NCBI GenBank assembly: GCA_001750645.1
Contig: MEIF01000228.1
Coordinates: 79,322 to 143,321, forward strand
Direction of reading: 5' to 3'
DNA: 64,000 nucleotides
Source of the DNA: Gammaproteobacteria bacterium AqS3
GTDB taxonomy: Bacteria; Pseudomonadota; Gammaproteobacteria; MEIF01; AqS3
The notes under the pieces were generated by a model. The model made no database searches, was not told the DNA's origin, and was given only the letters and a program-made list of their open reading frames with translations. This document shows positions 15,129 to 64,000 of the stretch, piece after piece. Both the position numbers and the translations under genes were made by a program. The stretch's first letter is position 1, and the number at the start of each line of letters is the position of its first letter.

Positions 15129-17006
15129 TCAAGCATCCAATATCTCAATTTGATCTTCTGAGAAATAACCTTTTTCTATAAGTTCCTCTCGCACTTTGCA
15201 TGGGTTGAGAGTAAACAGAATAATGACTAAATCTTTTTTAGCTCTGGAAAAGCTTACATAAGCCAGTTTTTTGGTTCGATCCTTTTGCTTTTCAGAAGAA
15301 CTTTCACCGGATGTTTCTGGTGACAGTAATTTAGCAAAATTGTAATTATTCCAATTTGTTTCAGTGTCATCATAGAAAACTAAAACTTTGTCATATTCTT
15401 CACCCTTCACACCATGCTGTGTGCTAAACGGAGTATTTTCATAAATAAAGTCGTAATACTTCTCCAATTGATCTGTCTTCATTTCAAAAAATCGATCAGC
15501 CAGCCATTCGCCCTTGTCTTTTTCATGTTCATTTTCGTCATATTCTTCAGACCTGACAGTTCGCTGAATCTGATCAGCAAGTCTGGTGGAAGCGGGAATT
15601 ATTTTGAGCTTGAGAGAGAGCTCAAGTATTTCTCTTAAGGAGCTCTTTTTCCATTCTTTAACTAGAGTCCTTACTGCTTTGCGCGCCTTTTTTCTGACGA
15701 AGCCAAGTGTTTCGTCAGAGCTTGGGCTTAAAAGAGGGCTGGATTCTTGAAGAATCTTAAAAACCTCCTGCTGATCATCTTTATCAAATGCTCGAACAAG
15801 TGGAATTAGCGGGTCAAAAAAGGGCCTTAATAAAAAATGCTCTCCTTTTTGGTAGTCATTTTTAGTTGACAGGCTGGCATAAGGCCCATTGAATAATTCA
15901 TGCAACTCCAGAAACCCCAATCGCCTTGCTATCATTTTATGAGTCAAAAATAAACTTTTAATTTTTGTGTCGTCTTGCCAATTCAGTTTGTCTAGTGCCG
16001 CATCAAACTTGGTGAGTGCGCGATCCATTTGATCACTGCTATAGGTTTTTCTATAGCCTTTTCCTTTTTCAGATTGCACCAGCATTACTTGAACACTGCC
16101 CTGGCAATTCTCTCCGGCTGGAACTTGCTGGACATCTTGTCTAAAGGAATTTAACAGCTGGATTACCGCTTTGGAGCAACGATAATTTTCCCGCTTGGTA
16201 ATTACTTTTAGGTGTGCACCTTCGCTAAAATTATCAGATCGCTCATCATAAATTTGCTGCATGGGATCCCCAAAATATCCAACGATGGGAGGTCCTTCTT
16301 TGGAAGTTAGTAGGTTTAGCGCACAGATAATGGAGGAATCAGTATCTTGTGCCTCATCGACAAAGATATAAGGGTATTTCTGTCCTATGATCTTTTGAAA
16401 GGCCGGAAATTTTTTGATCATCAGCCCTGAAAGCTCGATAACATCATCATGATCCAATTGCCCTTCTTCGTAATTTTTAGATGGGCTGTCATCATATTTG
16501 AATTTTTCGATTTCATTTATATTTTCCAGCACCTGTTCATATTTAGCGATTCTCTCTTGCGCATTTGTTGCGGCAGTACTTCTTCCATTGGCTCTGAGCT
16601 TGTTTTTCGCTATCTGGGATGGGATGATGCAATCTTTTATCATTGTTTTGATTTCTTGTTGAAAGCTTTTGATCTCTCCCCACAAAAATGAGTGAAGGGT
16701 AGAAACTATAAATAAATCATCGAAATTTAAACGTTTCAATATGACATTGACAGCTCTATTGGTGTATGTAATGCATACAACGCGCCGACCCTTTTTTCTA
16801 AGCAGAGCCCTTTTATGCTGTCGAATGTAATCTAGGGCATTAATCAAAGATCTGGTCTTGCCCGATCCTGCACCGGCAACCACAGCAAAGCTTTCATCCT
16901 TATCAATGCAATTTCGAATCTCCCTATCCGAATCCGAGAGAGCATTCCGTTTTGGTGACGTCAAGTCTTTCCTATTGTTCTTCAGCCCGTTGTTCGTTCT
17001 AGTCAT
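15129..17006 (-). CDS. gajB: UvrD/PcrA/Rep-like SF1 helicase, GajB-like (Gabija-like pair 1)
   Basis: Walker A AVVAGAGSGKTRSL, motif II FVDEAQD, C-terminal VSFSRAKKDL. 4-nt overlap with the upstream OLD-family gene. ~36% GC. Confidence 0.7.
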   Translation of the reverse strand: MTRTNNGLKNNRKDLTSPKRNALSDSDREIRNCIDKDESFAVVAGAGSGKTRSLINALDYIRQHKRALLRKKGRRVVCITYTNRAVNVILKRLNFDDLFIVSTLHSFLWGEIKSFQQEIKTMIKDCIIPSQIAKNKLRANGRSTAATNAQERIAKYEQVLENINEIEKFKYDDSPSKNYEEGQLDHDDVIELSGLMIKKFPAFQKIIGQKYPYIFVDEAQDTDSSIICALNLLTSKEGPPIVGYFGDPMQQIYDERSDNFSEGAHLKVITKRENYRCSKAVIQLLNSFRQDVQQVPAGENCQGSVQVMLVQSEKGKGYRKTYSSDQMDRALTKFDAALDKLNWQDDTKIKSLFLTHKMIARRLGFLELHELFNGPYASLSTKNDYQKGEHFLLRPFFDPLIPLVRAFDKDDQQEVFKILQESSPLLSPSSDETLGFVRKKARKAVRTLVKEWKKSSLREILELSLKLKIIPASTRLADQIQRTVRSEEYDENEHEKDKGEWLADRFFEMKTDQLEKYYDFIYENTPFSTQHGVKGEEYDKVLVFYDDTETNWNNYNFAKLLSPETSGESSSEKQKDRTKKLAYVSFSRAKKDLVIILFTLNPCKVREELIEKGYFSEDQIEILDA

Positions 17007-19060
17007 GACGAAGGATTATCCATCACAGACACTAACCATTGCAGGCCTTTGGATATATATTGAGGAGTAACCCATTCAACGTCGCTACTCATCACTTCAA
17101 GAGCAAATTCGGTTTTTTTGTAATTTGGTGACTTTACAGTTGAATAAACTTTTTTGTAATCCTCTGAAAAATTTTCGTCTTCACCAAGTTTTATAAAATT
17201 TTTAAGAAACGAATTTGCTCTAATCAAATTGATGTTGTGGTAAATAAAGGATTCTTCAAAAGTTCTGGGTATCATTTCTTGTTCCCCAGGATAGGGAGAT
17301 ATGGAGTTTTGAAAAGTGATCCCCAGGTCTTTCTGTTCCGGAGAGATATGCAGGTGGGGCTCTTCATTTGATATTTTCAGTAAATCTGAAATAGCTTTTT
17401 TGTTAACAAGAGATGTAATGGTTTTATTGCTGGAAACCGCACCAGATTGGCAGGCCATGCATGCTTTTCGATTCTTTCGAGGGTCGATTGAATCAAGGTC
17501 CGAAATAATGAGAGCTGGCAGGTTTAAGAATTTGATTAAAGGAACTAACTGATGTGCGTATGCCCCTCCTACTTCTAGAATTGTCAAATATTTGCTTGAA
17601 AGATCCCGAGCTTCTTTCTCGATAAATTTTGGCAAAAGCAGTTTCTCGGTGGCCCCTTCAACTAAGACTGCTCCATCTGAGAAAAACAAATCACAGTGAG
17701 TGAGTCTCAGATATTTTTTGAGAAAATTGACATTTTTCTCTGAATTTTCTTTGCTGGAAAAATCTTTTAGATCTAGAATTTTTGTGGCTATTTTTCGATC
17801 ATCAGATTCTTTTATTTCAGACCTGCATCTTTGAAAGTAACGAATGGAGGTGAAATCCCCCTCATCAATAATGTGGGGCGAGTGAGTGCTTATTAAAAGT
17901 TGAGGGTTGGATAATTCGTTATTTTCCGGGTTGCTGCCCCTCTCTATTACTTTTCTTATTTTTCGAATAAATGTTTGTTGCACCTGTGTGTGCAGGTGAA
18001 CTTCAGGCTCTTCGACGAAAATGAGGTGACAGGGCGGTTGAGTTTCTTCTATAGTCAGCCATTTTCTCTGGAAATGACTGATCTGGGCTGCTATATAAAT
18101 GAGGTTCTTGAAACCCAATCCATTGTAGGCTTCCGGCAGTTCATAGTCAGGATATTTGCTGTCTGCGTAAAGTAAAGTGGTACTTCCTTGAAGGGCGTCT
18201 TCTGGCTTCAGAGTTGACGATATTCTTAATTCTCTGTCATTTGCAGATGGAAAACCCAAGTCACTAATAATGTCAAATAATGGATTAAACTGCCTATCGT
18301 AATGTTCAGAAAGTTTTCTGTTGCTCTCATCAATGACTGCGAATGCTTCATCGTCAGCTTCTAATTTTTCCAGATTGGCTTTGTAATACTCATTTAGGAT
18401 GCTAGACAGTCTTGTGCTCCTCGCGGCTTCTTTGTCATCAATGTTCCTTTGAGCGTCGACAAAGTCGACCGCAATTAGGCTTCTTAAAGCTCGCCTTCCT
18501 TCTTCTCCTTCTAAGGCATGCGGCTTTGTCAAACTTTTGTTGAATGAATCACCAGTTTTTTCTAACTTGAAGTATTTCAGACTGAAGTGATTTTTCAGTC
18601 GATCTTTCTCAGATAAAAACCGTGATAGCTTTATATCCGGGCTGGATTTTCTACTGCTGTCAAATTCACTGATTAGTTCAGTTTGATCATTCACTGAAAA
18701 TGAAATTCTGATGCCTATTTCAGAATATTCTTTTTCTAGAGAGGTTAACAAGTTATAAACTTTTCCATATTCAGCTTCTGGATTGATGGAAAACCAAAGA
18801 TCCAAGTCGATCGATGGAATCTTGTTTTCTCTTTCTTTTTCCTCTTCGCCGATCTGATCTATTTTTTGCAATAGCGGTACTGAAAAATCATAAATTTGAA
18901 ATTCAGAGTTCCGCCCAGGAAGAAATAGCCTGAAAATCATGGATGCGGATGTTTTGCCGGAATTGTTCGGACCAACCAGTATGGTGTCCGTATCGCTGAG
19001 ATTGACCTCGACATTTTCCAGTCGCCTGAAATTTCTGACGCAGAATCTATCTAGTTTCAT
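17003..19060 (-). CDS. gajA: OLD-family ABC-type ATPase with C-terminal TOPRIM nuclease domain, GajA-like (Gabija-like pair 1)
   Basis: Walker A GPNNSGKTS. D-loop/Walker B LIFVEEPEVHLH. H-loop STHSPHII. TOPRIM-like VLVEGATEKLLL ... ALIISDLDSIDP. Immediately upstream of and coupled to the UvrD-like gene. Confidence 0.75.
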   Translation of the reverse strand: MKLDRFCVRNFRRLENVEVNLSDTDTILVGPNNSGKTSASMIFRLFLPGRNSEFQIYDFSVPLLQKIDQIGEEEKERENKIPSIDLDLWFSINPEAEYGKVYNLLTSLEKEYSEIGIRISFSVNDQTELISEFDSSRKSSPDIKLSRFLSEKDRLKNHFSLKYFKLEKTGDSFNKSLTKPHALEGEEGRRALRSLIAVDFVDAQRNIDDKEAARSTRLSSILNEYYKANLEKLEADDEAFAVIDESNRKLSEHYDRQFNPLFDIISDLGFPSANDRELRISSTLKPEDALQGSTTLLYADSKYPDYELPEAYNGLGFKNLIYIAAQISHFQRKWLTIEETQPPCHLIFVEEPEVHLHTQVQQTFIRKIRKVIERGSNPENNELSNPQLLISTHSPHIIDEGDFTSIRYFQRCRSEIKESDDRKIATKILDLKDFSSKENSEKNVNFLKKYLRLTHCDLFFSDGAVLVEGATEKLLLPKFIEKEARDLSSKYLTILEVGGAYAHQLVPLIKFLNLPALIISDLDSIDPRKNRKACMACQSGAVSSNKTITSLVNKKAISDLLKISNEEPHLHISPEQKDLGITFQNSISPYPGEQEMIPRTFEESFIYHNINLIRANSFLKNFIKLGEDENFSEDYKKVYSTVKSPNYKKTEFALEVMSSDVEWVTPQYISKGLQWLVSVMDNPSS

Positions 19061-29702: not shown

Positions 29703-31640
29703 TTATGCAATGTCTACCTCTTCCTCGGCAAACCAGTCATTTCTCAAGACGTAATCTTTCACCTTGTCGGGGTTTTCAGCATAAGCCACCAAAGCCAGGC
29801 TGCTTTTGCTGCGGCTGCAGGCAACATAGAAAAGCCGCCGGGTTCGATCAATTGAGCTGTCTCTGCCCTCGTCAAGGTTGCTTATGTCAGTCCGCGAATA
29901 CGCCCTGTCGCCGAGCAGCTTGCCGTAGCTGAACATGAAGCCGCGCGACTCGGAATCGTCCATGATCACCATGACACGCTCAAACTCCAAGCCCTTCACG
30001 CCTTGGTGGGTGTCAAACGCTGTCAGCCCGTCAATATATTTCTGATAGATGTCGATCTCGGAGAATGGAGCCTCCAAGAAGGAAAGCACGGCTGCTGTGC
30101 GTTCATCAAGCGGATCGGCTTGCATGTCTTCCTGGGAGGAGTCCGCAGAGCTGTCTAAGACCGCGTGGGCAGACAGCAAGACCTCTGGGATCTCGAACAA
30201 TTCGTGTTCAAGAATGCAGCGCAAAACGTCGGCGCATGTCGGTGTGCCTTTGCCGCAAAGCGACATCAGGGCATCAACGCCGGCCTGAGCCTGCATCATC
30301 AATTGCTTTGGGTCGGAAGCCTCTTTGAGAGCGTCTCGAGTCAACAGCGGAGACGACTGCCGGATCAGCCTGAAAACTGTGAATCGGTCGTTTTTCTGTT
30401 GGGCCTGAACAAGCGGAAAAGCCAATTGAGTGAAGAACCGAAGCAGGGGGAGGCTGCCATCGAGCAGTCCGGTGCGCCAGCCATCGATTTTGTAGAGAGG
30501 CTTGAAGACCGCTTCAAACTTCAGGCGCCTTGCAGCCATGTGATGCTCAAGCGTGAGAATCTTGCACTGATCTCGATTGCCCCAGCCGGCATCACCGGAA
30601 TATTCAGCCATTTGGCTTCGGATATCCTCTTCGATTGCCGTATGGTCTGTTACATCGGCGCGTCGGATAAACAGCCTCACCTTCCCATTAAGTGCATCCG
30701 ATCTGGCTTCCTGAGTGTGCTCATCCGCTGTCTCCCGAATCTTATTGATGAGTCGCACAACCCGCTTGGGGCAGCGATGATTGAGTCTTTTGGAGGGCCT
30801 TCCCCAACGCTCGGGAAGCTCCTCTTCGATATGCTCTTTGCCGTCCTGATAAATTCGCTGCATGACATCGCCGATCAGTCCCAGGCAAAACCGGTCTGAA
30901 TGCCTTTGATCAACCGTGAAGAGGGCGCCAATCAGATGGCGGTTGGTGTCCTGACTTTCGTCAATTAGCAGGATGGGAAATCGACCAACCAGTATCCAGC
31001 CCATGAGGGGTTTCTGAGATAGAAAATCTGCGCAGATTTGAATGACTTCTGCATGGTTGAGTGCATTGGATTCGGAGTTTTCACCGTTGGGGCTGTAGAT
31101 GAAAGACTGAATGGCATCAAGCCGCTCTAACTGCTTTCCTTTGGATTTGATTTTGGCTTGCCGTTCTATCGATGCCTTGGTTCTAGAGCGGCCTTTATCT
31201 TCCTTTATTTGGAGTTCATCTATTTCCTCTTGCAAATTTTTGCGGAGCCATTCTCTAATGTCGTGATCAAAACCCTTAATCAGCTCCCAGGCAAAGCTGT
31301 GAATGGTCGCTACGTAGAAGAGAGGATGGGAATCTGTCCGCCGAATGATTTCATCACGGGCGGCATTGGTATAGGTGATCACACCGACACGATGGCCGTG
31401 CAATGTCAGTTCGCGTTCATATTTTGAGCGAATATGATCCAGTGAATTGACCAAGGTCCGCGTCTTTCCTGAGCCGGCACCTGCAAAAAGAAAGAAGCTT
31501 CTCGGCTCTTTGGGATTGAGATAGCCGGCGATTTCCTCATCTACGGGGTCGTCTAAGGTGCTGTTTACAGTCAGGGACGGACTAATGGTCATGGCCTTTT
31601 TGAGGCTTTGTATCTTCAGCTGGCTTTGGATTAACGACAC
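29703..31640 (-). CDS. gajB: UvrD-like SF1 helicase, GajB-like (Gabija-like pair 2); start may be the internal Met near 31592
   Basis: Walker A FLFAGAGSGKTRTL, motif II LLIDESQD, C-terminal VACSRSKSSL. Paralogous to the 15129..17006 product. Confidence 0.7.
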   Translation of the reverse strand: MSLIQSQLKIQSLKKAMTISPSLTVNSTLDDPVDEEIAGYLNPKEPRSFFLFAGAGSGKTRTLVNSLDHIRSKYERELTLHGHRVGVITYTNAARDEIIRRTDSHPLFYVATIHSFAWELIKGFDHDIREWLRKNLQEEIDELQIKEDKGRSRTKASIERQAKIKSKGKQLERLDAIQSFIYSPNGENSESNALNHAEVIQICADFLSQKPLMGWILVGRFPILLIDESQDTNRHLIGALFTVDQRHSDRFCLGLIGDVMQRIYQDGKEHIEEELPERWGRPSKRLNHRCPKRVVRLINKIRETADEHTQEARSDALNGKVRLFIRRADVTDHTAIEEDIRSQMAEYSGDAGWGNRDQCKILTLEHHMAARRLKFEAVFKPLYKIDGWRTGLLDGSLPLLRFFTQLAFPLVQAQQKNDRFTVFRLIRQSSPLLTRDALKEASDPKQLMMQAQAGVDALMSLCGKGTPTCADVLRCILEHELFEIPEVLLSAHAVLDSSADSSQEDMQADPLDERTAAVLSFLEAPFSEIDIYQKYIDGLTAFDTHQGVKGLEFERVMVIMDDSESRGFMFSYGKLLGDRAYSRTDISNLDEGRDSSIDRTRRLFYVACSRSKSSLALVAYAENPDKVKDYVLRNDWFAEEEVDIA

Positions 31641-33900
31641 CCAAACTCTCTTGCTGGTTATTTAGTTGCTTAATCAGCCACCGTAGCCCTTCACGAATAT
31701 AAGAAGGCGGCTGTAATTTTATGGGTTCTGAGATATATAGAAGATCAAGTGCGAATTCTGCTTTTCCTCCAGCTTCCAATGCTTGAAATATTTGGTTGCG
31801 CAATGCTTCTAGATCAGAGCTTGTATCAATTGCTGTCTTAAATTTCTCCCCTAGGCTGTTACTTGGAAGATGATTTTGAAAGAGTTTTAGGTTCTCCATT
31901 ATCAATGCGTCTTCAAAAGTGTTGCACAAGGCCTCTTCGCGCTTTCCTTTAAATTCCACGCTGACTGGCCGTTGGTATGCGACGCGAATGGAAAAATGCT
32001 GGCTTTCATATTTTTTACTCTTTAACTTTTCATCAAGATCCAAGAGGACATCCAGTTCTTCAACACCGGGACACCACGACTTGAGGGTGTAGTTGCGTGT
32101 TTTAAGGCTGCTATCGCGCCTTGGTATTTCTTTTGCTCGGTCTGTGTTAGAAGCATCAAGATCGGTGATGATGAGAGTTGTCAGGCCCAGGTGTTCAACC
32201 AAATCTTTGAACCTATGAGCATGACTTCCGCCAATCTCAAGCCATGAGATGTAGCACTGCTGCAAAGCATTGAGTTCTGGCTGGTGTTCGACAAAGAACG
32301 GAATCAAGATTCTTTCAGCCGGGCCTTCCACAAATACCGCCGCATCGGCAAAAAGCAGGTCACAGTGAGTCACCTTGATATATCGAGTGACAAAGCGCTT
32401 GGTCTCATCTTCTGCCCCGAATATATTACTCAGATTGATGACGCATGAGAGGGGAACAGATGCTGCATCGATGGGAAGACGGCGAAAATATCGCAGGTCA
32501 TCAAATTCACATTCATGGGCGATATGGCTGGAGTGCGTGCTCACGATCACCTGGGTTTTCAATTCCTCTGATTGCCCTAATTCACTGTGGCTTCGAAGAA
32601 ATTTATAGGCCTGTCTGATAAATACCTGTTGAACCTGTGTGTGAAGGTGGGCTTCAGGTTCTTCAATGAGCACAAGATGCAAAGGCGGAATATGCACATC
32701 AGATTCTTCCTCTGATTGAATATTGGCTTTGCCAACGCGCATCCGCGCATCGCGAAAGCTCATTAACCGGAAAATCATGGATATAAGGTTTTGATAACCC
32801 AGACCGTTGGAGTCTTCAGGGAGGCTAAGTTCAACTGTGTTCCCGTCATCTTGTGTGGTTACAGCATATTGGACGGCAGTGGGATGATTAAGACCATCAA
32901 CCGGCTTGATGCGTGTGGAAATTTTGAGCTTTGGATCGGTGATGCCCGGATACCCCATTTTTTCCACTTCTTGGATGGCTGCTGAGAATCCATTCATAAG
33001 TTTCTCATCAAAAGTCTCTTGAGCCGTTTTGATGGCAGCCAACGCTCTGATGTCTTGTTCGCTTGAATGTTTAAGCGGGTCGAGGTGCCTATTCCAATAG
33101 CGCTGAAGTTGATGGGACATGCGCCGACTGGAGCTTGATCCGGCAAGTGTGCCGTCATCATCGGGATCGCCGGACTCAGTGGTTTGGCCAAAACCCCGCT
33201 GGGCGCCGATCTCATCAATTTGGATGAGACCTTTGAGGGGGTTGCTGCCGATGGGCTCTGCGTTATCTGGCAGCGGTTGAGGCTGTGACTCGCCACGATC
33301 AGCCTTGCTGAATTTTGCGGGATCAAGAATGTACGCCTCAATGGAGAAGAGGTCGCTCAATCTGCGCTTTAGAAAATCGGTAAGTGAAAGGGGCCAAAGC
33401 AAATCTGATAGATCACCTTCAGTTCGTTTCTTGGTCGTTTCCAAAGAATGCGATTGGGCACGAGCGACTACATAGGCCTTTTGGAGTTTGGATTCGTCTT
33501 TCGGTTGAAGCCGAAAGCGAACGCCAAGCCGTCCGCCATCCCAATCAAGCGTCGGGATTATCTTTTGGACTAAATGAGCCTCTTCCTTGTCGGCGTGAAG
33601 CCAGACATCCAGAAAGGGCAGGATGGGGGCCCAATCGGGCTCAGGAAGAGGCTGATCTTCTGTATTCGCCCTCTCCCAGGCAGCCCCCATTTCGTCAATT
33701 TTCGGCCAATTGGACAGCGTGAAGTCATCGAGAGAAAAAGGATTTCTGCCTTTTTCGATAAGAAAGTACTGAAGGGCGCGCATTGCCGAAGTCTTTCCGC
33801 TGTTATTCGCCCCGACAAAAACTGTGGTCTCCCCAGAAAATTCGATCCGCACTGATTTGAGCTTTCTAAAATTTGCAATCTCAATACATTCAATGTGCAT
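31582..33900 (-). CDS. gajA: OLD-family ATPase + TOPRIM nuclease, GajA-like (Gabija-like pair 2)
   Basis: Start chosen at ATG 33900 (AGGGAA RBS; aligns with the N-terminus of pair 1). GANNSGKTS Walker A, LVLIEEPEAHLHTQVQQVFIR, STHSSHIAHE, TOPRIM VFVEGPAERILIP ... LIITDLD. Confidence 0.75.
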   Translation of the reverse strand: MHIECIEIANFRKLKSVRIEFSGETTVFVGANNSGKTSAMRALQYFLIEKGRNPFSLDDFTLSNWPKIDEMGAAWERANTEDQPLPEPDWAPILPFLDVWLHADKEEAHLVQKIIPTLDWDGGRLGVRFRLQPKDESKLQKAYVVARAQSHSLETTKKRTEGDLSDLLWPLSLTDFLKRRLSDLFSIEAYILDPAKFSKADRGESQPQPLPDNAEPIGSNPLKGLIQIDEIGAQRGFGQTTESGDPDDDGTLAGSSSSRRMSHQLQRYWNRHLDPLKHSSEQDIRALAAIKTAQETFDEKLMNGFSAAIQEVEKMGYPGITDPKLKISTRIKPVDGLNHPTAVQYAVTTQDDGNTVELSLPEDSNGLGYQNLISMIFRLMSFRDARMRVGKANIQSEEESDVHIPPLHLVLIEEPEAHLHTQVQQVFIRQAYKFLRSHSELGQSEELKTQVIVSTHSSHIAHECEFDDLRYFRRLPIDAASVPLSCVINLSNIFGAEDETKRFVTRYIKVTHCDLLFADAAVFVEGPAERILIPFFVEHQPELNALQQCYISWLEIGGSHAHRFKDLVEHLGLTTLIITDLDASNTDRAKEIPRRDSSLKTRNYTLKSWCPGVEELDVLLDLDEKLKSKKYESQHFSIRVAYQRPVSVEFKGKREEALCNTFEDALIMENLKLFQNHLPSNSLGEKFKTAIDTSSDLEALRNQIFQALEAGGKAEFALDLLYISEPIKLQPPSYIREGLRWLIKQLNNQQESLGVVNPKPAEDTKPQKGHDH

Positions 33901-34045
33901 TGTGAAATCATTCCCTGATGACAGTTTCTGTTGAACTGCCGGCACCTGGTTGATAGGGGGGTTGACAGGAAGACGCAAAAACGAGCGAAGCCATGGCTGT
34001 CAGGATGTGAATACGCAGCATTTCATTAGCCCTCCTCAATCCAGC

Positions 34046-34122
34046 TGGCGCGCCCGGCAGGATTCGAACCTGCGACCAACGGCTTCGGAAGCCGCTACTC
34101 TATCCAGCTGAGCTACGGGCGC
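34046..34122 (-). tRNA. tRNA-Arg (anticodon CCG)
   Basis: Reverse complement folds as a canonical cloverleaf: acceptor GCGCCCG/CGGGCGC, D-arm GCTCAGCTGGATAGAGT, anticodon loop TTCCGAA, T-arm GCAGGTTCGAATCCTGC, 3' GCCA. Confidence 0.85.
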
Positions 34123-51257: not shown

Positions 51258-51649
51258 TGATGGACGAGTGCCTGGAGCGAATCTTTGAGGAACTGAAGGG
51301 TCTGGGCTATGACCCTTATTACGCGGACTGGCCGCAGGGGAAAAAGGTGGTCATCAAATACAGGATTCTCACGGGCAAATACGCCAATCAAACGGTCTTG
51401 CTGGGGGTCTCAAACCCGGATGGCCCCTATCCTGAATACCCTCCGCATTGGATTCACATTAGCCCGCTGCACGACGATGGATTGGGAGGGCCAGTAGAAA
51501 TCTATTCAAGTGAAAATGAAAAGGGGCAGACCTGTGAATGGGGCGCATTGAGCCGCCCTCCTCGCGATATTTGGGATCAGCTGCCGGAAAAAAGCATGAA
51601 GTCATTTCTTAATGAACATGTTGGCCGCTTTTGCAAAGCCCTGAAGTGA
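51257..51649 (+). CDS. Prokaryotic E2 (UBC-like) conjugating enzyme candidate
   Basis: 130 aa. HPN-like segment YPPHWIHISP followed by a conserved Cys (GQTCEWG). Start overlaps the upstream stop. Overlaps the downstream E1 gene by 19 nt. Confidence 0.5.
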   Translation: MMDECLERIFEELKGLGYDPYYADWPQGKKVVIKYRILTGKYANQTVLLGVSNPDGPYPEYPPHWIHISPLHDDGLGGPVEIYSSENEKGQTCEWGALSRPPRDIWDQLPEKSMKSFLNEHVGRFCKALK

Positions 51650-53124
51650 ATATATACGAGGCAGTCTTTTTGGGCGAGACCAATGAAGAAATATGCGCTC
51701 ACTTATTGCAGCACTTCAACAAGGGGGAGTATCAGGAGGATCTTTGCTTTGCCCTTTGGCGCCCCAGCACGGGTCAAAATCGCTACAGCGCTTTGATTTA
51801 CAAAGCCATTCTCCCCCATGAGGGTGAAAGAAACCTCCATGGAAATGTGGAGTTCAATCCAAATTATTTGTCCCGCGCCATTAACCTGGCCTGCCGGGAG
51901 GGTGCAGGACTTGCCTTTATGCACAGCCATCCGTCCGATGGCTGGCAGGCCATGAGCCAGCCGGATGTCGTCGCTGAAAAGGAGGCGATTTTTTATCCGG
52001 CACAGGCCACACAATTGCCGTTGCTGGGGTTAACGGTGGGAACCGACGGTTATTGGAGCGCTCGATTTTGGATCAGGGAGGGCAGGAAAAATCAGATTCA
52101 TTGGTGTCAAAAGGTCCGGGTGGTCGGCGAGAAAAAATATCAGCTCTACCATAACGATGCCCTTGCACCCGCTCCGAAGAGAAGAAATATCCTGCGGAGA
52201 ACTTATGACACCTGGGGGGCAGAAAAGCAGAACGATATTGCGCGTCTCAAGATCGGCGTGGTGGGCTTGGGCAGTGTCGGCTGCATTGTTGCCGAGGCGC
52301 TCGCCCGAGGCGGCATTCAGGAAATTGTTCTGATCGATCCGGATCGGGTGGAGGAGCACAATCTGGATCGGCTGCTGTATGGAACGCAGAGCGAGATCGG
52401 CCAATATAAAGTGGACGTGGCTGAGAGGCGCCTCCGGCTCAATTCCACCGCAGAGAGGGTTGCCGTTCAAAAAATCCCGCTCTCCCTCCGCGATGAGCGG
52501 GCTTATCTGGCGGCGCTGGACTGCGATCTCCTGCTGAGCTGTGTCGACCGTCCGGTTGCCAGGGATGTGCTTAATTTCATTGCCTTTGCGCATTTGATAC
52601 CGGTGATTGACGGGGGCATTGCCATTGAGCATGCGGAAAATCTGGATTCATTCTTTGCCCATTGGAGGGCGCACCTTGTCACCCCATACCACCAGTGCAT
52701 GCGCTGCAATGGCCAGTACACGACCAGTGACGTGTCTGTGGAATTGGATGGATCGCTGGACAACCCTGCCTATGTCAGCAGTCTGCCGCCCGAGGAGCGG
52801 GGCCGCAACCAGAATGTTTTTCCGTTCAGCCTGCATGTTGCAGCCATGGAAGCCGGCGCCATGTTTCGGTACTTGGTGGCGCCTGATTGGTGGCCTCCGG
52901 TTCAGCAGCAGGACTATGATTTTTTAAGGGGTACGACAACCATTCAGAACGACAAGTGCAGGCCACATTGCGTATTTCAAAATGAGCGAATTGCCCGGGG
53001 CGATGCAATCAACCCCAATCTCAAAAGCCTGATTATTCGGACAGGTGAACCAGACAGAGACGAACGGAAAAGCTGGCTCCGCGGTTTATTGTCTAAATTC
53101 ACCAGAGCTTTCGGTAAGGAATAG
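51631..53124 (+). CDS. JAB/MPN metalloprotease domain fused to E1-like (ThiF/MoeB) adenylyltransferase (TTG start)
   Basis: N-terminal JAMM motif E...HSHPS...S..D (FMHSHPSDGWQAMSQPD). C-terminal Rossmann KIGVVGLGSVGCIVAEALARGGIQEIVLIDPDRVEEHNLDR. Cys pairs CMRCNG ... CRPHC. Confidence 0.75.
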   Translation: MQSPEVNIYEAVFLGETNEEICAHLLQHFNKGEYQEDLCFALWRPSTGQNRYSALIYKAILPHEGERNLHGNVEFNPNYLSRAINLACREGAGLAFMHSHPSDGWQAMSQPDVVAEKEAIFYPAQATQLPLLGLTVGTDGYWSARFWIREGRKNQIHWCQKVRVVGEKKYQLYHNDALAPAPKRRNILRRTYDTWGAEKQNDIARLKIGVVGLGSVGCIVAEALARGGIQEIVLIDPDRVEEHNLDRLLYGTQSEIGQYKVDVAERRLRLNSTAERVAVQKIPLSLRDERAYLAALDCDLLLSCVDRPVARDVLNFIAFAHLIPVIDGGIAIEHAENLDSFFAHWRAHLVTPYHQCMRCNGQYTTSDVSVELDGSLDNPAYVSSLPPEERGRNQNVFPFSLHVAAMEAGAMFRYLVAPDWWPPVQQQDYDFLRGTTTIQNDKCRPHCVFQNERIARGDAINPNLKSLIIRTGEPDRDERKSWLRGLLSKFTRAFGKE

Positions 53125-54034
53125 AGGAGGCCACAAATCTTGGCCCTCTCAAACCTTTTTGCTTGCCCAGCTGCTCAAACAGTGTCCGCACTCTTTCCAG
53201 GTCCGGCACTCGGGGCCCGATCGTAATGATGCTTCCGCTTTGCAAAAGATTTTTGGTCTTTAGGGCATCTGTGTCAACATATTTCCTTATGTGAGATGTA
53301 GCCGGTTTATAGTCAAAGGAGTGTTCTTTCTCCCCTATATCTTGATATGGAATTAAAATTCGACTTTCTCTTTCATGCTTATAGGCGCTATCCTTGTATA
53401 AAAATCGCAAAACAACAAAATACTCCAAAATTTCTTCGATAAAGGCGTTTTTATTCTCCTCACTCAACTTATCTTTCCAATAACCCTTATATCTTTGCAG
53501 GATTCCCCCAAACTCTTCCGCGCATTTCTCGAGGGCTCTTTTTTCATAGGCTACTTTGTATATTTTTTCCGGCCTGATAATTTTAGGTAAAGCTATAGAG
53601 CAGCCCAGCCCATCCTGCCCGTATGATTGCCAATACATCAGCTCATCTTCAACACCCTTTTTTCCCCCTATGAAGGAGCATGAAAACGGGGGGTTTTTTC
53701 TGGGAGTGATTATTTCTTCGGGCAATTCATATTTTTTTTGAATTTCGTTGAGGAAATATTTTCCTTCATTGGGATCATTCGTGGCTGAAATATCGTAACA
53801 CCTTAATCCCCTGCTCTCATGGTGCGGGGGTTCATCTGTCTCGCAGGGAAGATTATTGAGCATTGAATAAACTGTTTCCATATTGGTGTAATGAACAAAA
53901 TATTCCAGACTTTCGTCAGTGTCGGTCACGAGATAATTATCAGCAAGATAATGATCTATTGACCCTCGAATCTCTGCCATCAAGGCCTTCCAATCCAGAG
54001 TGCCGGGTTCCAGCTTATTTGCCATCGTGATCAC
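53099..54034 (-). CDS. Hypothetical protein, DUF2971-like (tentative), convergent with the Ubl cassette
   Basis: Motifs FVHYTNMETVYSMLNN ... LRCYDISATNDPNEG fit my recollection of DUF2971 (HYT ... NDP.E). Same low-GC island. Confidence 0.35.
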   Translation of the reverse strand: MITMANKLEPGTLDWKALMAEIRGSIDHYLADNYLVTDTDESLEYFVHYTNMETVYSMLNNLPCETDEPPHHESRGLRCYDISATNDPNEGKYFLNEIQKKYELPEEIITPRKNPPFSCSFIGGKKGVEDELMYWQSYGQDGLGCSIALPKIIRPEKIYKVAYEKRALEKCAEEFGGILQRYKGYWKDKLSEENKNAFIEEILEYFVVLRFLYKDSAYKHERESRILIPYQDIGEKEHSFDYKPATSHIRKYVDTDALKTKNLLQSGSIITIGPRVPDLERVRTLFEQLGKQKGLRGPRFVASSIPYRKLW

Positions 54035-54092: not shown

Positions 54093-55259
54093 CTACCGCC
54101 CTGCCCTCAGACTCCATTTCTCGGCGCCCCATTGCAGCAGGATCAGCGCTGTGAGGACATTGCTGAAGAAGAAAAATCTCAGCGACAGATCGTGAAGCAA
54201 TACGATGTGGGCGGCGGCGAACAGCACGGCGGCCATCAGAAAACCGTTCTCGCTTTTCCAGAAATTTCCTTGGCGAAAATTCTGGATCAATTTATAGCCA
54301 ACCACTCCAAGCAAAACCAGGCGAAACAGGGTTCTGCGCCAAGCCGCAAGGATGTATTCAATGGTCCTCGCGTAGGGCGGCCAGTAATCGGAGAGCTGGG
54401 CTGAGATCGGAATGTCTCCGCCGCCGGCAAAAACACGCAGCAGCTCAGGTGTGTTATGCACGATGAATATGAAATTGAACAGGGCCAAATATCCGGGATG
54501 TTCGGAGAGGGTATTCGCCATCAAATAAGAGAGCAATGCCCCGGCATAAGCCAGATACTCCCACTTGGGCGATGCCTTTTGACTGTTTCTGACTTTGACC
54601 CAGTCGTCGCACAGCTGCCAGAGCATTAGCAGGGTGATGAAAATAATAAAATTGGTGCGAATCAATGGCAGCAGCACAATCAGAGCCAGCGCCCAATTCC
54701 GCCTTTTATTCCAGCACAGCACAATTCCCAAGGCGGCCACTGCGGCCAGCAAATCCGGGGTGGCAAGGGCGGCCACTTTGGGGAGCTGGAACACCAGCAG
54801 CGCAACCGGAAAAAGCGCGAATATGCGCCAGTTGCTGCCCAGCAGCGCCCCGCCAAACAGCAGGGCAAAAACGGCTCCGGCCAGTGCGCCAGTCAAGGCG
54901 ATGGCTGAACTGATGGTGTCGGTGAATAGCGACAGCGCCCGCACCGTCGCCAGATACAGATATCGGCCCTGATAAAACGCAACTTGGCGCTCGAAAAATT
55001 GCGGATCTTGGTGCGTCAATGTTCGGTACAAAATATCTTCTGTCAGCTCTCGCCACTTTTCATCATCAACGCTGGCCCGCACATCTGCATAAGTGGCCTC
55101 GTGCAGCTGAGCTCCGCGCGCACCCTCGAGATGCAAAATGGATGCGGTGTAGCCGATCATGTCCCAATTTTGGCGAGGATTCACCAAGCCGTTGGCCAGA
55201 ACCAGGGCGGAGAAAATCAGGATCGTCAGAGCCTGCCAGGGGTGTTGTTTGAGAATCAA
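54093..55259 (-). CDS. Polytopic inner-membrane protein, last gene of the arabinose-like operon; candidate GT-C-type arabinofuranosyltransferase (inference from position)
   Basis: ~10 predicted TM helices. 4-nt overlap with the dprE2-like gene. Occupies the aftA position of the mycobacterial Rv3789-Rv3792 cluster. Confidence 0.4.
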   Translation of the reverse strand: MILKQHPWQALTILIFSALVLANGLVNPRQNWDMIGYTASILHLEGARGAQLHEATYADVRASVDDEKWRELTEDILYRTLTHQDPQFFERQVAFYQGRYLYLATVRALSLFTDTISSAIALTGALAGAVFALLFGGALLGSNWRIFALFPVALLVFQLPKVAALATPDLLAAVAALGIVLCWNKRRNWALALIVLLPLIRTNFIIFITLLMLWQLCDDWVKVRNSQKASPKWEYLAYAGALLSYLMANTLSEHPGYLALFNFIFIVHNTPELLRVFAGGGDIPISAQLSDYWPPYARTIEYILAAWRRTLFRLVLLGVVGYKLIQNFRQGNFWKSENGFLMAAVLFAAAHIVLLHDLSLRFFFFSNVLTALILLQWGAEKWSLRAGR

Positions 55260-58615: not shown

Positions 58616-59212
58616 CTACGCAGGCGGATTTTTGAGGTGCTGAACCTGAATGCCCGGGATGCCCTCCACCTGGCGGCGCAGCCGGTGCGATGCCCCCACC
58701 GTAATGGCGGCCGCAGACCGGCGCCAGACCGGCAGATCGCGGCGGTGATCGCCGACGTAGGCAAATCGCTCGCTGCCGTAGCGCCCGGCCAGAAATTCGG
58801 CCTTGCGGTGTCCGGACAGGTTGAGTTTTCCATCGGAGGCGTACACCTCGTCAAAGATCTCCAGATGATCGGCCACGGCCTGGGCGCACCGGTGATCGGA
58901 TCCGGTCGCCAGCACAATGCGGGCGCCCTTGGATTTCCACAGCCGCACCAGGTCGAGCACCTCGGTGTTGTAGGGCAGCCGGTCGTAATTGATGGACGAG
59001 TGCGCAGCCAGATGCTGCTTCAGCTGCGGACGCCCGCCCCTCATCAGAGCCCAGAGTGCACTCAGCGGAATATGCCAGCAGCGGGACAGCGAGGAAAAAA
59101 AGCTTTCCGCCAGCAGATCGGTGCGCACCAGACTGTGATCCAGGTCGACCACCAGAATATTCAGATCGGGCGAGGGGCTGACGGGCGTCGGAACCTGATC
59201 GGGTTGATTCAT
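58616..59212 (-). CDS. HAD-superfamily phosphatase
   Basis: Motif I VVDLDHSLV (DxDxT/V type), motif III K, motif IV GDHRRD. Confidence 0.6.
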   Translation of the reverse strand: MNQPDQVPTPVSPSPDLNILVVDLDHSLVRTDLLAESFFSSLSRCWHIPLSALWALMRGGRPQLKQHLAAHSSINYDRLPYNTEVLDLVRLWKSKGARIVLATGSDHRCAQAVADHLEIFDEVYASDGKLNLSGHRKAEFLAGRYGSERFAYVGDHRRDLPVWRRSAAAITVGASHRLRRQVEGIPGIQVQHLKNPPA

Positions 59213-59364
59213 TTGCGCCCCCGGTGAACCCGCTGCCGAGCCCTTATGGTGCAGCTGACGGCGGGATTTTACAGGAGGAACGACGATGCAAGCCCCGGAT
59301 CTTGAGCCAAGAGGGTGACCTGATATGCTTCTGACGGCTGATAGAAGTTCTGACAGGGGGAGAT

Positions 59365-62146
59365 TTGATGAATCTGTCGTGGAATGAGATTCGCCATCGG
59401 GCAGGAAAATTTTCCGATGACTGGAGAGATGCGCATTATGAAAAAGGCGAGACTCAGAGTTTTTATAACGATTTCTTTCAGATTTTTGGACTGCAGAGAA
59501 GAAGTGTCGCCCGCTATGAGCAGCATGTCCAAAAATTAGGCGACCAGGCCGGCTTTATTGATCTGTTTTGGCCTGGCACACTGCTGGTTGAGCAAAAGAG
59601 CGCCGGTCGCAATCTTGAAAAAGCCAGGGAACAGGCGGGAGAATATTTTGACGGATTGCCCGACCACCAGCGCCCCCGCTACATTCTTTTGAGCGATTTC
59701 CAGACTTTTGAATTGCATGATTTGGAGGAGAAATCTGGAAATATCTGTTTTGAGCTTGCAAATCTGCACGAACATGTCGAGAAATTCAGCTTTATGATCG
59801 GGATTCAGCGCAGGGTTTTTCGCGATCAGGATCCGGTCAATATTTATGCAGCCGAGCAGGTCGGCAGACTCTATGACGCCCTCAAGCATGCGGGCCATGC
59901 CGAATATGACCTGGAGCGATTTTTGGTGCGCATTGTGTTCTGTCTTTTCGCCGACAACACCGGCATTTTTGAGTCCAGGCACAGCCTGCTTGACTTTATC
60001 GAAACGAGGACCCGGGAGGACGGCTCTGATCTGGGACAGCAATTGGCGCAATTATTCGAGGTCCTGGACACGCCCCCAGACAAGAGGGCCGGCACTCTGG
60101 ATGAAGATTTGGCTAAATTTCCCTATGTTAACGGAGAGCTTTTTAGGGATCATTTGAGAATATTTTCCTTTGATTCAAGAATGCGCAAAATGCTGCTGGA
60201 GGTCTGCCATTTCAATTGGTCCAACATATCGCCGGCCATATTCGGGGCACTGTTCCAATCGGTGATGGATCCGGAGATGCGCCGCACGCAGGGAACTCAT
60301 TACACGACCGAGCAGAATATTCTGAAGGTGATCGAGCCGCTGTTCATGGATGATTTGCGGGCGGAGTTTCAAAGGCTGAAGTCTCTTCGCAGGGGGCGCA
60401 TTCGGGCTCTCAGGCATTTTCAGAAAAAATTGGGGACCATGAAATTTCTGGACCCCGCATGCGGCTGCGGCAACTTTCTCATCATCGCCTATCGGGAATT
60501 GCGCCAGCTGGAAATTGAGGTGCTCAGAGAGATCTATCCCAAAGCCCAGGGTGTCCGGCAGTCGGCGTTATCCGTGCAGATTTTGTCGCTGATCGACGTC
60601 GACCAGTTCTACGGAATTGAAATCGGGAAATTCCCTGTTCGCGTTGCCGAAACGGCGCTGTGGATGATGGACCACATCATGAACAACAAGCTCAGCATTG
60701 AATTTAGCAAGAACTATGCGCGCATCCCGCTTGAGAAATCACCCTCTATTTTTCAGGGCGATGCGCTGGAAAATGATTGGGCTGATGTGCTCCCTCCCAA
60801 AGAGTGCTCCTTTGTATTGGGCAACCCCCCTTTTGCCGGATCAAAGCTTCAATCCGCCGAGCAGCGGATTCAGGTGCGTCAGATTGCAAGGGGGGGGAAC
60901 GCTCGATTACGTCTCGGCCTGGTTTGTTAAGGCTGGCGAGTACATAAAACGCTGCAATGCTCGAATGGGCTTTGTTGCGACCAATTCGATCACTCAGGGC
61001 GAGCAGGTGGCGCAATTGTGGCCAATCCTTTTCGATAGATGCAAACTGGAAATTAGCTTTGCGCATCGCACTTTTGCCTGGGGCTCGGACGCGCGCGGCA
61101 AGGCAAATGTGCATGTCGTGATTTTGGGCTTGGACAACTGTGAGAAAGCGCCAAAGGAAAAACGCCTGTTTAACTATCCCGATATTCGCGGCCAACCGGA
61201 AGAGAGCAGCCCCAAGGCGATATCGCCTTATTTATTTGATGCCGGTGATTTGTCTGATCCGCACACCGTGATCACAGAGGAAAGCCAGTCGATCAATGGA
61301 ATGAGCAAATTGGTTATGGGCTCCAAGCCCATCGATGGTGGGCACTATATTTTCAGCGAGACAAAACGTGACAACTTTCTCAAACTGGAACCGGGAGCAG
61401 AAACATTTCTCCGCCCCTATATCGGCGCTCGGGAATTTTTGCAGGGAGAGAAACGATGGATTTTGTCCCTGCATAACGCCTCTCCGGAACAATTGGCGCA
61501 CCTGCCGAATGTGAAAAAAAGAATCGCTCGGGTTCGCGCTTATCGAGAAGCGAGCAGAAGTTCACCAACGCGGAATTTGGCGGAAACGCCGAGGCTTTAT
61601 CACCTCAATGTGATTCCTGAAAAACCTTTTCTATTTATCCCAAGAGTAAGTTCACAGCGTCGCGAATACCTTCCCATTGGCTGGCTGGAGCCTCCTATCA
61701 TTCCCAGTGATGCGGCGCTTATTTTGGAAAATGCCACGCTGACTGACTTTGCCCTGCTGATCTCTGCAATGCATAACGCATGGCTGCGTCAGATAGGCGG
61801 TCGTCTGAAAAGCGACTATCGCTACTCGGCGGGTTCTGTTTACAACACCTTTCCGATGCCGCCTGCGACGGCAAAACTTGAAAAACTGGAGCCCCTGGCT
61901 CAGGCGGTGCTGGATGCCCGAGCCGCTCATTCAGGCTCAACGCCGGCCAATCTATATGATCCTGACCTGATGCCCGGTGACCTGCACCAAGCCCATAAGA
62001 ATCTGGACCGGGCCGTTGACCGCCTCTACCGCCGCGGCGGGTTTGCATCGGAGCACGAGCGCATCGGTCATTTGTTTGAGCGCTATGAAAAAGTGCGCAG
62101 TCCGCTGGAGGCGGGGAAGCGCAAAACAAGGCGTCGCCGTCGTTGA
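59365..62146 (+). pseudogene. MmeI-family type IIL restriction-modification enzyme (nuclease + gamma-class N6A methyltransferase + TRD in one ~925-aa polypeptide), interrupted by a frameshift at a G8 tract
   Basis: N-terminal D-X9-E-X-K nuclease motif (IDLFWPGTLLVEQK). Motif I DPACGCGNFL. Motif IV LGNPPFAGS. Downstream frame continues TLDYVSAWFVKAG ... C-terminal LFERYEKV. Reading frame 1 switches to frame 2 across gggggggg at 60910-60917. Confidence 0.75.
60910..60917 (+). repeat. Homopolymeric G8 tract inside the MmeI-like gene; 7 or 10 G would restore the frame
   Basis: Sequence ttgcaa-gggggggg-aacgc. Frame analysis done by hand. Confidence 0.85.
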
Positions 62147-62241
62147 ATTCGGGACGATCGCCAAGCCGGGCAGAAGGGATTCACACCGCTCGGAAAATCG
62201 CCGTCGGGATTTTCGATTGATTGGCGGCGCCTCAAGCCGGC

Positions 62242-63177
62242 CTAGGAGCCGGGTTTCCTTCCGGAGGCCAGGTCTTCCTGCAACAGTTTCGTGTATCTTT
62301 TGTTCGGCTTTTGGTATTTGTCGCGCAGACGCTTAATGAGGGTGTCCTGACGCCGCCGAATGTACTTGATCTTGGTGGCGAATTCGGCGCTGTAAATGTA
62401 AGGAACAGTCCGGGTTCTTGGCTTTGGGTCAGTCAGCAGGTTTGGAAAGTAGCTGCTCATCTTGTCGCCATTTTTGCGGTCCTCGGATGGCTCCTGCTTA
62501 TCTGGGGATTCAGATGAATTGAAGCCCCAGTCCTCATCCTTCCAAAGCGGGGGAATTTCCTTGAAATAGGGCTCAATGTGGTGCGCCTTGATCGGGGAGG
62601 GTGTTTTGGCCAGCTCCTCGACTTTTTCGAGGTCGTAGTTGCCGGGTCCCTTGCGGAGTTCCCGCTTGATTCGCCGCCAGGCCTTCGGGTTGATCCAGGT
62701 TTCATCAATGTCCTCGGGCCCCAGATACTTGGCCCGCTCCAGGGTGTAGGTGACGGTCACGCCGGTCTTTGAGCAGGTCAGTTCCGATTCCTGATTGGGA
62801 TAGATGTCCAGATCCTTCCCTTTCAGCCCCTGCCACAGCGCCAGATAGTTGAGCGAGCCGTAGATTTTGTTTGACTGTTCTTTGCTCACGCGACCGAGTT
62901 TTTTTCTCGCCCCGGGTTTTTCGGCGGGCGGTTTTTTCTTTGGCGGCGGCTTTTGGGGATCAATGCCGCCCTTCCAGGCCAGCATCGGCAGTTCTCCCCG
63001 CTCGACCTGCCTGGCCAGGTCCGGACTCTTTGTGCGCAGCGAGCGACCGATTTCCCAGCAGGAGATGATCCCGAGATCCTCTCCGTACCAGCGTTCGTGC
63101 CATGACGAATATTGAGTTCGGGGTTCGTCAAACGAGCGAGACAGGTGCAAGTCCCTGCTAGGCGGCCTTTTGGGCAT
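62242..63177 (-). CDS. Hypothetical K/R-rich protein of unknown function
   Basis: ATG 63177 preceded by AGGAGGGAG RBS. 311 aa with PKKKPPAEKPGARKK basic stretch. No recognisable catalytic motif. Confidence 0.35.
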   Translation of the reverse strand: MPKRPPSRDLHLSRSFDEPRTQYSSWHERWYGEDLGIISCWEIGRSLRTKSPDLARQVERGELPMLAWKGGIDPQKPPPKKKPPAEKPGARKKLGRVSKEQSNKIYGSLNYLALWQGLKGKDLDIYPNQESELTCSKTGVTVTYTLERAKYLGPEDIDETWINPKAWRRIKRELRKGPGNYDLEKVEELAKTPSPIKAHHIEPYFKEIPPLWKDEDWGFNSSESPDKQEPSEDRKNGDKMSSYFPNLLTDPKPRTRTVPYIYSAEFATKIKYIRRRQDTLIKRLRDKYQKPNKRYTKLLQEDLASGRKPGS

Positions 63178-63318
63178 GGTTTCTACTCCCTCCTGTTTCC
63201 TCTCTGGCTGACAGCAAGCCGGGCAGAACAAAATCATACCAGCAGTCGAATCAGAGGGCTCAATCAGCCGGCGGGTTGAGCGATTGGGCAGACTGAGGAT
63301 GCGGGCGGGCCGCTCAAA

Positions 63319-64000
63319 TCAGGTCACCGAGCCGGAGGCGAACAGCTCGTCGATCTCCTCTGCGGCAAAGCCGGCCTCCTGAAGCACTCGGCGCGAATGC
63401 GCCCCGGGCGCGGCGAGGTCCTCGCGCAGACGGGTGCGGCGTCCGTCGATCTCCAGCGGCAGGCCGGGCAGCCTGGTCTTGGTGTCGCTGTCCGGCAGCG
63501 TGACCTCGACCAGTCCGCCGCTGTTGAGATGCTCGTCCTCAAACAGTTCGCTGGGTCTGGCGATCGGCGCAAACGGCAGGCCGATGCGTTCAATGCGTTC
63601 GATCGCAGCGGTGCGGGTCATGCCGGCGAACAGCGCGCGGACTTCGTCGAGCAGCCAGCCTCGGGCGGCGACCCGGTCGTTGTTCTCGGCCAGCCGGGCG
63701 TCGCCCAGCCAGTCGTCGCGACCGAATTCCCGGCAGAAGGCCTGCCACTGGGCATTGCTGACGACGGCGACAAACAGCGGCAGCGCATCGGCGCACTGGA
63801 ATACGTCGTAGATCGCCCAGGCCGGGGCGCGCTCGGGCATTGGCGGGGCGGGCTCGCCGGTGACGGCCTCCTGCGCCATGTGCTGCCCGACCAAAAACGC
63901 GGTCGATTCGAACAGCCCGCTGGACAGGTGCTGCCCCTGGCCGGTGCGCCTGCGCTCGTGCAGCGCCGCCAAAATCCCCAGGGCGCCGAAGGTTCCGCCG
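63319..64000 (-). CDS. CoA-transferase family III (CaiB/BaiF-like), C-terminal part; N-terminus beyond the window
   Basis: C-terminal domain pattern of family III CoA-transferases (GLPFAPI, LPGLPLEIDG). ORF open to the window edge. Confidence 0.6.
   Translation of the reverse strand, partial: GGTFGALGILAALHERRRTGQGQHLSSGLFESTAFLVGQHMAQEAVTGEPAPPMPERAPAWAIYDVFQCADALPLFVAVVSNAQWQAFCREFGRDDWLGDARLAENNDRVAARGWLLDEVRALFAGMTRTAAIERIERIGLPFAPIARPSELFEDEHLNSGGLVEVTLPDSDTKTRLPGLPLEIDGRRTRLREDLAAPGAHSRRVLQEAGFAAEEIDELFASGSVT

Follow-up and report, generated by a model that had tools for sequence, protein, structure and literature searches.

A gene for a single-chain Type IIL restriction-modification enzyme of the MmeI family in Gammaproteobacteria bacterium AqS3 is broken into two reading frames at a run of eight guanines (G8). 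Comparison with its relatives indicates that the lesion is a net loss of 11 nt from a linker of the methyltransferase, a change that slippage by a single base does not explain. We favor, at about even chances, the explanation that the gene has truly and recently lost its function and is now a pseudogene still without a second lesion rather than a maintained switch. The sponge Amphimedon queenslandica harbors three extracellular symbionts that are inherited vertically, and AqS3 is one of them (bioRxiv 10.64898/2026.08.05.743132). The 64-kb stretch of its DNA that was analyzed is referred to below as the window.

Reading frames and domain organization

The gene spans positions 59368 to 62146 of the forward strand and comprises two overlapping open reading frames. 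The first starts at 59365 (TTG) or 59368 (ATG) and runs in frame 1 to 60930; the second extends in frame 2 from 60698 to 62146. A putative Shine-Dalgarno sequence, GGGGGAG, can be read on the same strand at 59356-59362, 5 nt upstream of the ATG at 59368, and a scan for promoters and terminators returned nothing exceeding shuffle expectation. ORF1 (59368-60930, forward strand, 520 aa) encodes the nuclease domain and helical spacer, then the methyltransferase as far as motif IV, and ends with 10 out-of-frame residues, NARLRLGLVC, followed by a stop. The continuation in frame 2 (60899-62146, forward strand) reads from TLDYV to the stop codon at 62144-62146; the remaining methyltransferase extends to 61171 and is followed by the target recognition domain at 61259-61864 and the C-terminal domain at 61871-62101. 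The uninterrupted frame of about 900-950 aa of the MmeI family is not found in the gene as sequenced, ORF1 ending at 60930 and the rest lying in the other frame. The product of the current 8 G allele is a 520-aa fragment without half of the methyltransferase and without the entire target recognition domain.

The frame change was mapped by homology to the 10-nt interval 60889-60898, between the end of QVRQIA at 60888 and the start of TLDYV at 60899. This interval contains the G8 run, which a reading of the sequence and a homopolymer scan place at 60890-60897 of the forward strand. The preliminary description had located a single frame change at G8, which is borne out, but had set the run at 60910-60917, 20 nt too far downstream. 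It had also foreseen an intact protein of about 925 aa with 7 or 10 G; in silico, 7 G indeed gives a single ORF of 925 aa from the ATG and 10 G one of 926 aa, neither with an internal stop.

MmeI-family Type IIL enzymes cleave about 20/18 nt away from an asymmetric site, and the host is protected by m6A on one strand. Judged by every sequence feature tested, save the lack of one open frame, the AqS3 gene is a member of this family. Residues 2-918 of the 7 G protein align with the chain of the MmeI crystal structure (5HR4, from Methylophilus methylotrophus, the Type IIL prototype) with an E-value of 1e-258, and all five MmeI Pfam domains (MmeI_N, MmeI_hel, MmeI_Mtase, MmeI_TRD and MmeI_C) are matched with E-values from 1e-82 to 5e-25. 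Both proteins consist, in the same order, of a PD-(D/E)XK nuclease, a helical spacer, a gamma-class m6A methyltransferase, a target recognition domain and a C-terminal bundle. They differ in that the AqS3 frame is broken 3' of motif IV, and in the linker from motif IV to LDY, which has 27 residues in the 7 G protein and 31 in MmeI.

The nuclease motif D-X9-E-X-K (DLFWPGTLLVEQK, 59560-59598, forward strand) aligns with D70...E80-X-K82 of MmeI, and the nuclease domain is matched by PF20464 (MmeI_N, E 2.9e-45). Methyltransferases of the family are recognized by motif I FxDPACGCGxFL, motif IV NPPF and the equivalents of MmeI His314 and Trp570 (PMC4833311). By these definitions, the AdoMet-binding motif I DPACGCGNFL is found at 60451-60480 and the catalytic motif IV NPPF at 60823-60834, both on the forward strand, and the alignment with 5HR4 reveals equivalents of His314 and Trp570 in the 7 G protein. 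The PF20473 match (E 1.1e-82) agrees with a gamma-class m6A methyltransferase. PF20466 (E 8.7e-65) and PF20467 (E 8.7e-26) are matched in frame 2 only, 3' of the shift, and the target recognition and C-terminal domains join the same chain only with 7 or 10 G. All the single-chain hallmarks listed in the preliminary description (D-X9-E-X-K, DPACGCGNFL, NPPF and a target recognition domain) could thus be located. Assignment to BREX PglX or another methyltransferase family was rejected, as NCBIfam matches were far below threshold and the nuclease and MmeI domains oppose it.

The putative specificity residues of the target recognition domain lie at 61637-61825 (forward strand), as placed by alignment with MmeI and by the published recognition code linking such residues to bases in the MmeI family (PMC2731914). 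In this alignment the equivalents of MmeI E751/N773 are R/D, those of A774/R810 are A/R and those of E806/R808 are K/D. The code predicts the site NNGRAG, in which positions 3, 4 and 6 are G, R and G, respectively, whereas MmeI recognizes TCCRAC. NNGRAG would be the motif to seek in a methylome.

A shortened linker at the break point

The distance from GNPPF to LDY could be measured in 72 of 80 genomic relatives. It is 93 nt in 70 of them, and the other two have 90 nt and 96 nt; in AqS3 it is 82 nt. The shortened segment (60883-60898, forward strand) reads ATT GCA A G8 A where the relatives have ATT GCN GCN CTN GGN AAR AGY GGN GGN, a net difference of -11 nt. At the protein level, alignment with the 60 best relatives gives IAALGK-SGGTLDYV for these and IA----RGGTLDYV for the repaired AqS3 protein, and across 120 relatives this gap of four residues at the tract is the one site where the AqS3 protein lacks what at least 95% of them have. 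Linkers of 31-38 residues occur in all 83 of the 83 locally most similar fragments. The repaired protein would have a linker of 27 residues with 7 G, four fewer, or of 28 residues with 10 G, three fewer than the clade. Read in the downstream frame, the tract encodes Q-GGG-T (CAA GGG GGG GGA ACG), which resembles the KGGGT of three relatives and the KGAGGT found in the DNA of a sister gene, P0001. A single 11-nt deletion explains the present sequence as well as slippage does.

No G run of at least six is present in the linker segment of any of the 72 genomic relatives measured, and the comparison of tract length among orthologs that had been proposed as a check on phase variation thus yielded no counterpart to G8. 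Additional inactivating lesions, proposed as the mark of a true pseudogene, were looked for as well: the 120-relative alignment and the 7 G ORF revealed no other internal stop or length anomaly in the gene. Substitutions at 95%-conserved columns number 37 in AqS3 against a mean of 6.5, and 66 in the outgroup P0001. Since AqS3 is itself an outgroup to a tight clade, its position confounds this count, which was dropped as an uninformative test of decay.

Composition, neighbors and assemblies

The MmeI-type gene looks horizontally acquired, because its GC content is 51.8% compared with 59.9% for the 64-kb window and 62-69% for the flanking core genes. The earlier deduction of acquisition from GC contrast stands, but not the values of 45% for the gene and 65% for the genome on which it was based. 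The gene is part of a low-GC island of about 4.1 kb (59230-63318, about 49-57% GC), delimited using the composition profile, the GC of the ORFs and the gene calls of the record. The island consists of the MmeI-type gene and one unknown 311-aa ORF, and is bordered by a HAD-family gene (58616-59212, reverse strand) and a CoA-transferase gene starting at 63319 (reverse strand). No homologs of the 311-aa ORF were found beside the MmeI-like genes of the relatives.

Long G/C runs are depleted in the window, where the G7 pattern has two matches, both within G8, against 14.5 +/- 4.9 expected from dinucleotide shuffles. The sole exception is the break point, the G8 at 60890-60897 being the only G/C homopolymer of at least seven in the 64 kb. 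Six other homopolymers of at least seven, all of 7-8 A or T, are located within long ORFs and show no visible frame break.

In the AqS3 assembly GCA_015278115.1, the run appears as C8 at JADHEJ010000044.1:47857-47864, window position x corresponding to position 108754 - x on that 311,513-bp contig. The gene calls of this assembly include no protein product between the CoA-transferase and HAD genes, hence none for the MmeI-type gene or its neighbor ORF, which is what a pseudogene call would give. A second NCBI assembly, on a contig of 172,753 bp, encodes identical products for the 520-aa ORF1, a 420-aa ORF2 (TTG at 60884) and the neighboring 311-aa ORF. AqS3 assemblies combine older draft contigs, which were scaffolded using Illumina and Chicago short-read data (bioRxiv 10.64898/2026.08.05.743132). 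The two assemblies with 8 G are probably not independent evidence, because they are likely to share base-level contigs through this scaffolding. Thus 8 G is the only tract state on record, from two probably non-independent assemblies.

Relatives and the possible activity of a repaired allele

The AqS3 gene resembles a sponge-associated clade of MmeI-like genes (L001-L080 and P0001-P0120) with 64-72% amino acid identity over the full length and the same architecture; like AqS3, the hosts of this clade are sponge symbionts. It is an outgroup to the clade, about 70% identical to all members, whereas these average 83% identity to each other. It also differs from them by its lower GC content (52%), its linker shorter by 11 nt and its G8, which is absent from the relatives measured. 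Identical frameshifted fragments aside, protein searches with the full-length, N-terminal and junction sequences revealed no closer allele or tract-length variant above about 77% identity. About 15 billion public proteins included neither a tract-length variant nor an ON allele, and two DNA-pattern scans of JGI metagenomes gave no match.

Separately, one MmeI-like clade, with 70-84% identity, is common to sponge-associated bacteria of many phyla. This cross-phylum clade may be a more useful lead than the frameshift.

The wider family was surveyed with 150 representatives at 35-68% identity, in 128 of which the distance from NPPF to D(Y) was measurable. The linker has 31 residues in 76 of these, 27 in nine, 25-26 in four and other lengths in 39. 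Those with 27 residues have their gap in the same alignment columns as AqS3 (RIT------GSGxLDYV), and several of the nine are full-length (909-982 aa); no relative above about 50% identity has a linker of this length. From these alignments, a 27-residue linker appears compatible with an intact enzyme elsewhere in the family, and the 7 G allele could be functional. The AlphaFold2 model of the 7 G protein (mean pLDDT 57, pTM 0.29) is too poor for a structural argument; at this low confidence it suggests a helix at 497-506, a loop at RGGT and a helix at 511-527.

Origin of the frameshift

We propose that AqS3 acquired a Type IIL gene by horizontal transfer, with nuclease, N6-adenine methyltransferase and target recognition domain in one chain, and that this gene was then broken in the linker between motif IV (NPPF) and the next helix (LDYV...), at G8. 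Two histories could have led to the break. One 11-nt deletion from ATT GCA GCN CTN GGN AAA GGG GGG GGA ACG (IAALGKGGGT) would yield the present sequence exactly. Alternatively, an older in-frame 12-nt deletion may have left AGG GGG GGA (R-G-G, G7), to be followed by slippage from G7 to G8. Codon usage was tried as a means to separate the one-event from the two-event history and set aside, both being equally plausible with AGG at 14% of Arg codons and GGG at 14.5% of Gly codons.

Translation would stop after 520 residues, and restriction and modification would be lost together because half of the methyltransferase and the entire target recognition domain are missing from the truncated product. 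This joint loss should be harmless to the cell, and the earlier argument that an OFF state is non-lethal in a single-chain R-M-S enzyme is sound reasoning in this respect. Loss of one G could restore the 925-aa protein with its 27-residue linker. The OFF state may be revertible, since the lesion lies within G8 and a 27-residue linker is found in some intact distant members of the family. The lack of a second lesion is also compatible with a maintained switch and with an assembly error, and these alternatives have to be weighed against a recent pseudogene.

The preliminary description proposed a phase-variable locus, alongside a sequencing error or a true pseudogene. In such a locus, slipped-strand mispairing would alter the length of the G tract and turn the gene OFF at 8 G and ON at 7 or 10 G. 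The population would then mix restricting and methylating cells with naive ones, as for cj0031 of C. jejuni and JHP1272 of H. pylori. We regard this as unlikely, although it is the strongest of the alternatives. What holds of it is that G8 lies within an ORF and that 7 or 10 G reopens the frame, as expected of a mutable repeat. Elsewhere the gene is undamaged and no catalytic residue is missing, the short linker of the ON form has a natural precedent in nine of the 128 distant representatives, and G8 is the sole long G/C run where such runs are depleted. Phase-variable Type IIG/IIL enzymes are known (PMC4889913; PMC3936762): cj0031 of strain NCTC11168 switches at G9/G10 (PMC4889913), and H. 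pylori JHP1272 and HP1353-54 are homopolymer-split Type IIG/IIL genes with ON/OFF switching (PMC3936762). As in AqS3, these single-chain enzymes are split into two ORFs by a mid-gene poly-G or poly-C tract, and the OFF state abolishes both activities. Reversible switching of G/C tracts of 7-8 is reported from other high-GC bacteria (PMC10334774). In those Campylobacter and Helicobacter systems, however, ON and OFF variants have been isolated, methylation has been shown and tracts are numerous, with 12-29 per C. jejuni genome (PMC4889913). The AqS3 gene has a single known tract state and the only such tract in 64 kb, and its host is a high-GC symbiont in which homopolymers are very few. Neither the public proteins nor the JGI metagenomes yielded a length variant or an ON allele. 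The ON allele requires the extra assumption that a linker shorter by 3-4 residues is functional in this clade, and switching ON in an unmethylated cell would risk self-restriction. Neither a tract shared by orthologs (0/72) nor many tracts per genome (one run in 64 kb) was found; this is weak evidence against a switch, because the tract is likewise absent from homologs of cj0031, a proven switch (PMC4889913). Overall, an evolved switch has little support, given that there is no variant or ON allele, no G run of at least six among the 72 relatives and no other long G/C tract in the window. In particular, we find it doubtful that G8 works as a contingency switch in a sponge symbiont that is high in GC and inherited vertically, with Amphimedon AqS3 mixing ON (7 or 10 G) and OFF (8 G) cells.

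An assembly or sequencing error, by which a true tract of 7 G and an intact 925-aa enzyme with a short linker would be hidden, is in our estimate rather improbable. Homopolymers are the commonest sites of indel errors, the gene has no other defect, and the same state in the second assembly probably reflects reused contigs. Coverage may also have been modest, AqS3 being of low abundance in the holobiont (0.87% of RNA-seq reads; bioRxiv 10.64898/2026.08.05.743132). An error is nevertheless less likely than a true frameshift, because the data are Illumina short reads and not from a homopolymer-prone long-read platform, because the six A/T runs of 7-8 leave their long ORFs unbroken, and because even with 7 G the linker is four residues below that of every close relative, so that a real indel occurred here whatever the tract length. 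Least probable, and by a wide measure, is a rescue at decoding, in which the 8 G allele would still yield some full-length enzyme through +1 slippage of tRNA-Gly on GGG GGG or through transcriptional slippage. In AGG GGG GGG A, the P-site tRNA-Gly could re-pair perfectly one base downstream to give the 7 G protein, and poly(A) tracts of insect endosymbionts are a known case of rescue by polymerase slippage. G8 is, however, shorter than the tracts known for efficient transcriptional slippage, and conservation offers no support, the relatives lacking such a G run.

Significance

Taken at face value, the recent pseudogene that we favor is one more inactivated defense gene of a symbiont, mainly of annotation interest. 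Even the phase-variable reading would not be new in kind, since homopolymer-split Type IIG/IIL switches are already documented. If true, it would constitute a Type IIL phasevarion that trades phage defense against openness to gene flow, outside the pathogens in which such switches are known. Mixed tract lengths, if read data showed them, would add a marine animal symbiont to the bacteria in which homopolymers switch single-chain restriction-modification enzymes. The Amphimedon holobiont would then be a tractable case, as both DNA and RNA data exist.

Defence cassettes and other genes in the window

Two separate and apparently intact Gabija systems lie on the minus strand, at 15129-19060 and 29703-33978. 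Each pairs a GajA protein (AAA_15 and OLD-like TOPRIM domains; 17003-19060 in the first system and 31582-33978 in the second) with a GajB UvrD-type helicase (15129-17006 and 29703-31640, respectively), with PADLOC E-values of 1e-168 to 1e-281. Both islands are low in GC (0.39 and 0.48-0.52), and the second adjoins a tRNA-Arg(CCG) gene (34046-34122, minus strand). Together with the frameshifted MmeI-type restriction-modification gene (59368-62146, plus strand), the two Gabija systems bring the number of acquired defence cassettes in these 64 kb to three.

Elsewhere, a ThiF-family ORF (51631-53124, plus strand) adjoins two minus-strand ORFs of unknown function, at 53099-54034 (42% GC) and 54093-55259 (55% GC). 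The former contains an 8-T run (53732-53739), and its sole match is a weak one in PADLOC, to the candidate system PDC-S31 (E = 1.6e-4). An isolated 356-aa ORF with a phosphoribosyltransferase domain (5069-6139, plus strand) has 48% GC among genes of about 65% GC and may be another acquired gene.

The island of the MmeI-type gene

The MmeI-type gene shares a low-GC island of about 4.1 kb (59230-63318) with an adjoining Lys/Pro-rich ORF of 311 aa (62242-63177, minus strand). An imperfect 14-nt inverted repeat, GGTGACCTGATATG / CAAATCAGGTCACC, with 13 of 14 positions complementary, is found at both edges of the island (59314-59327 and 63315-63328). Chance alone would give about two pairs of this kind in that stretch; nevertheless, the fact that the two repeat copies fall at both GC transitions hints at a mobile cassette. 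Two identical copies of a 14-nt direct repeat, CAAGCCGGGCAGAA (62162-62175 and 63215-63228), lie 1053 nt apart on either side of the 311-aa ORF. This ORF has no match in Pfam, PHROG, NCBIfam or PADLOC, and no homologues were found beside the MmeI-type genes of the relatives. It is called in the second NCBI assembly but has no product in the annotation of the AqS3 source record, GCA_015278115.1.

Relatives of the MmeI-type gene

Many database homologues from the clade of ORF1, the 520-aa first part of the gene (59368-60930), are truncated or frameshifted at scattered sites past the NPPF motif (P0134, P0162, P0165, P0170, P0174, P0186 and P0193, for example), and no common break point was seen among these homologues (P0122-P0240). 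Judging from these sequences, broken copies of the family are common, whether they represent real pseudogenes or assembly errors.

The closest genomic relatives (L001-L080) come mostly from MAGs whose names or sample labels indicate a sponge origin. They include Proteobacteria, Chloroflexota, Acidobacteriota, Gemmatimonadota, Latescibacterota and Nitrospirota, as well as Cyanobacteria (Ca. Synechococcus spongiarum), Bacteroidota, Spirochaetota, Binatia and Thermodesulfobacteriota. Amino-acid identity among fourteen genes sampled across these groups is 70-84%. A literature search found no published description of inter-phylum transfer of this MmeI-like clade in sponge microbiomes. The spread over many phyla, combined with this level of identity, suggests that one MmeI-like clade has been transferred between phyla inside sponge microbiomes.
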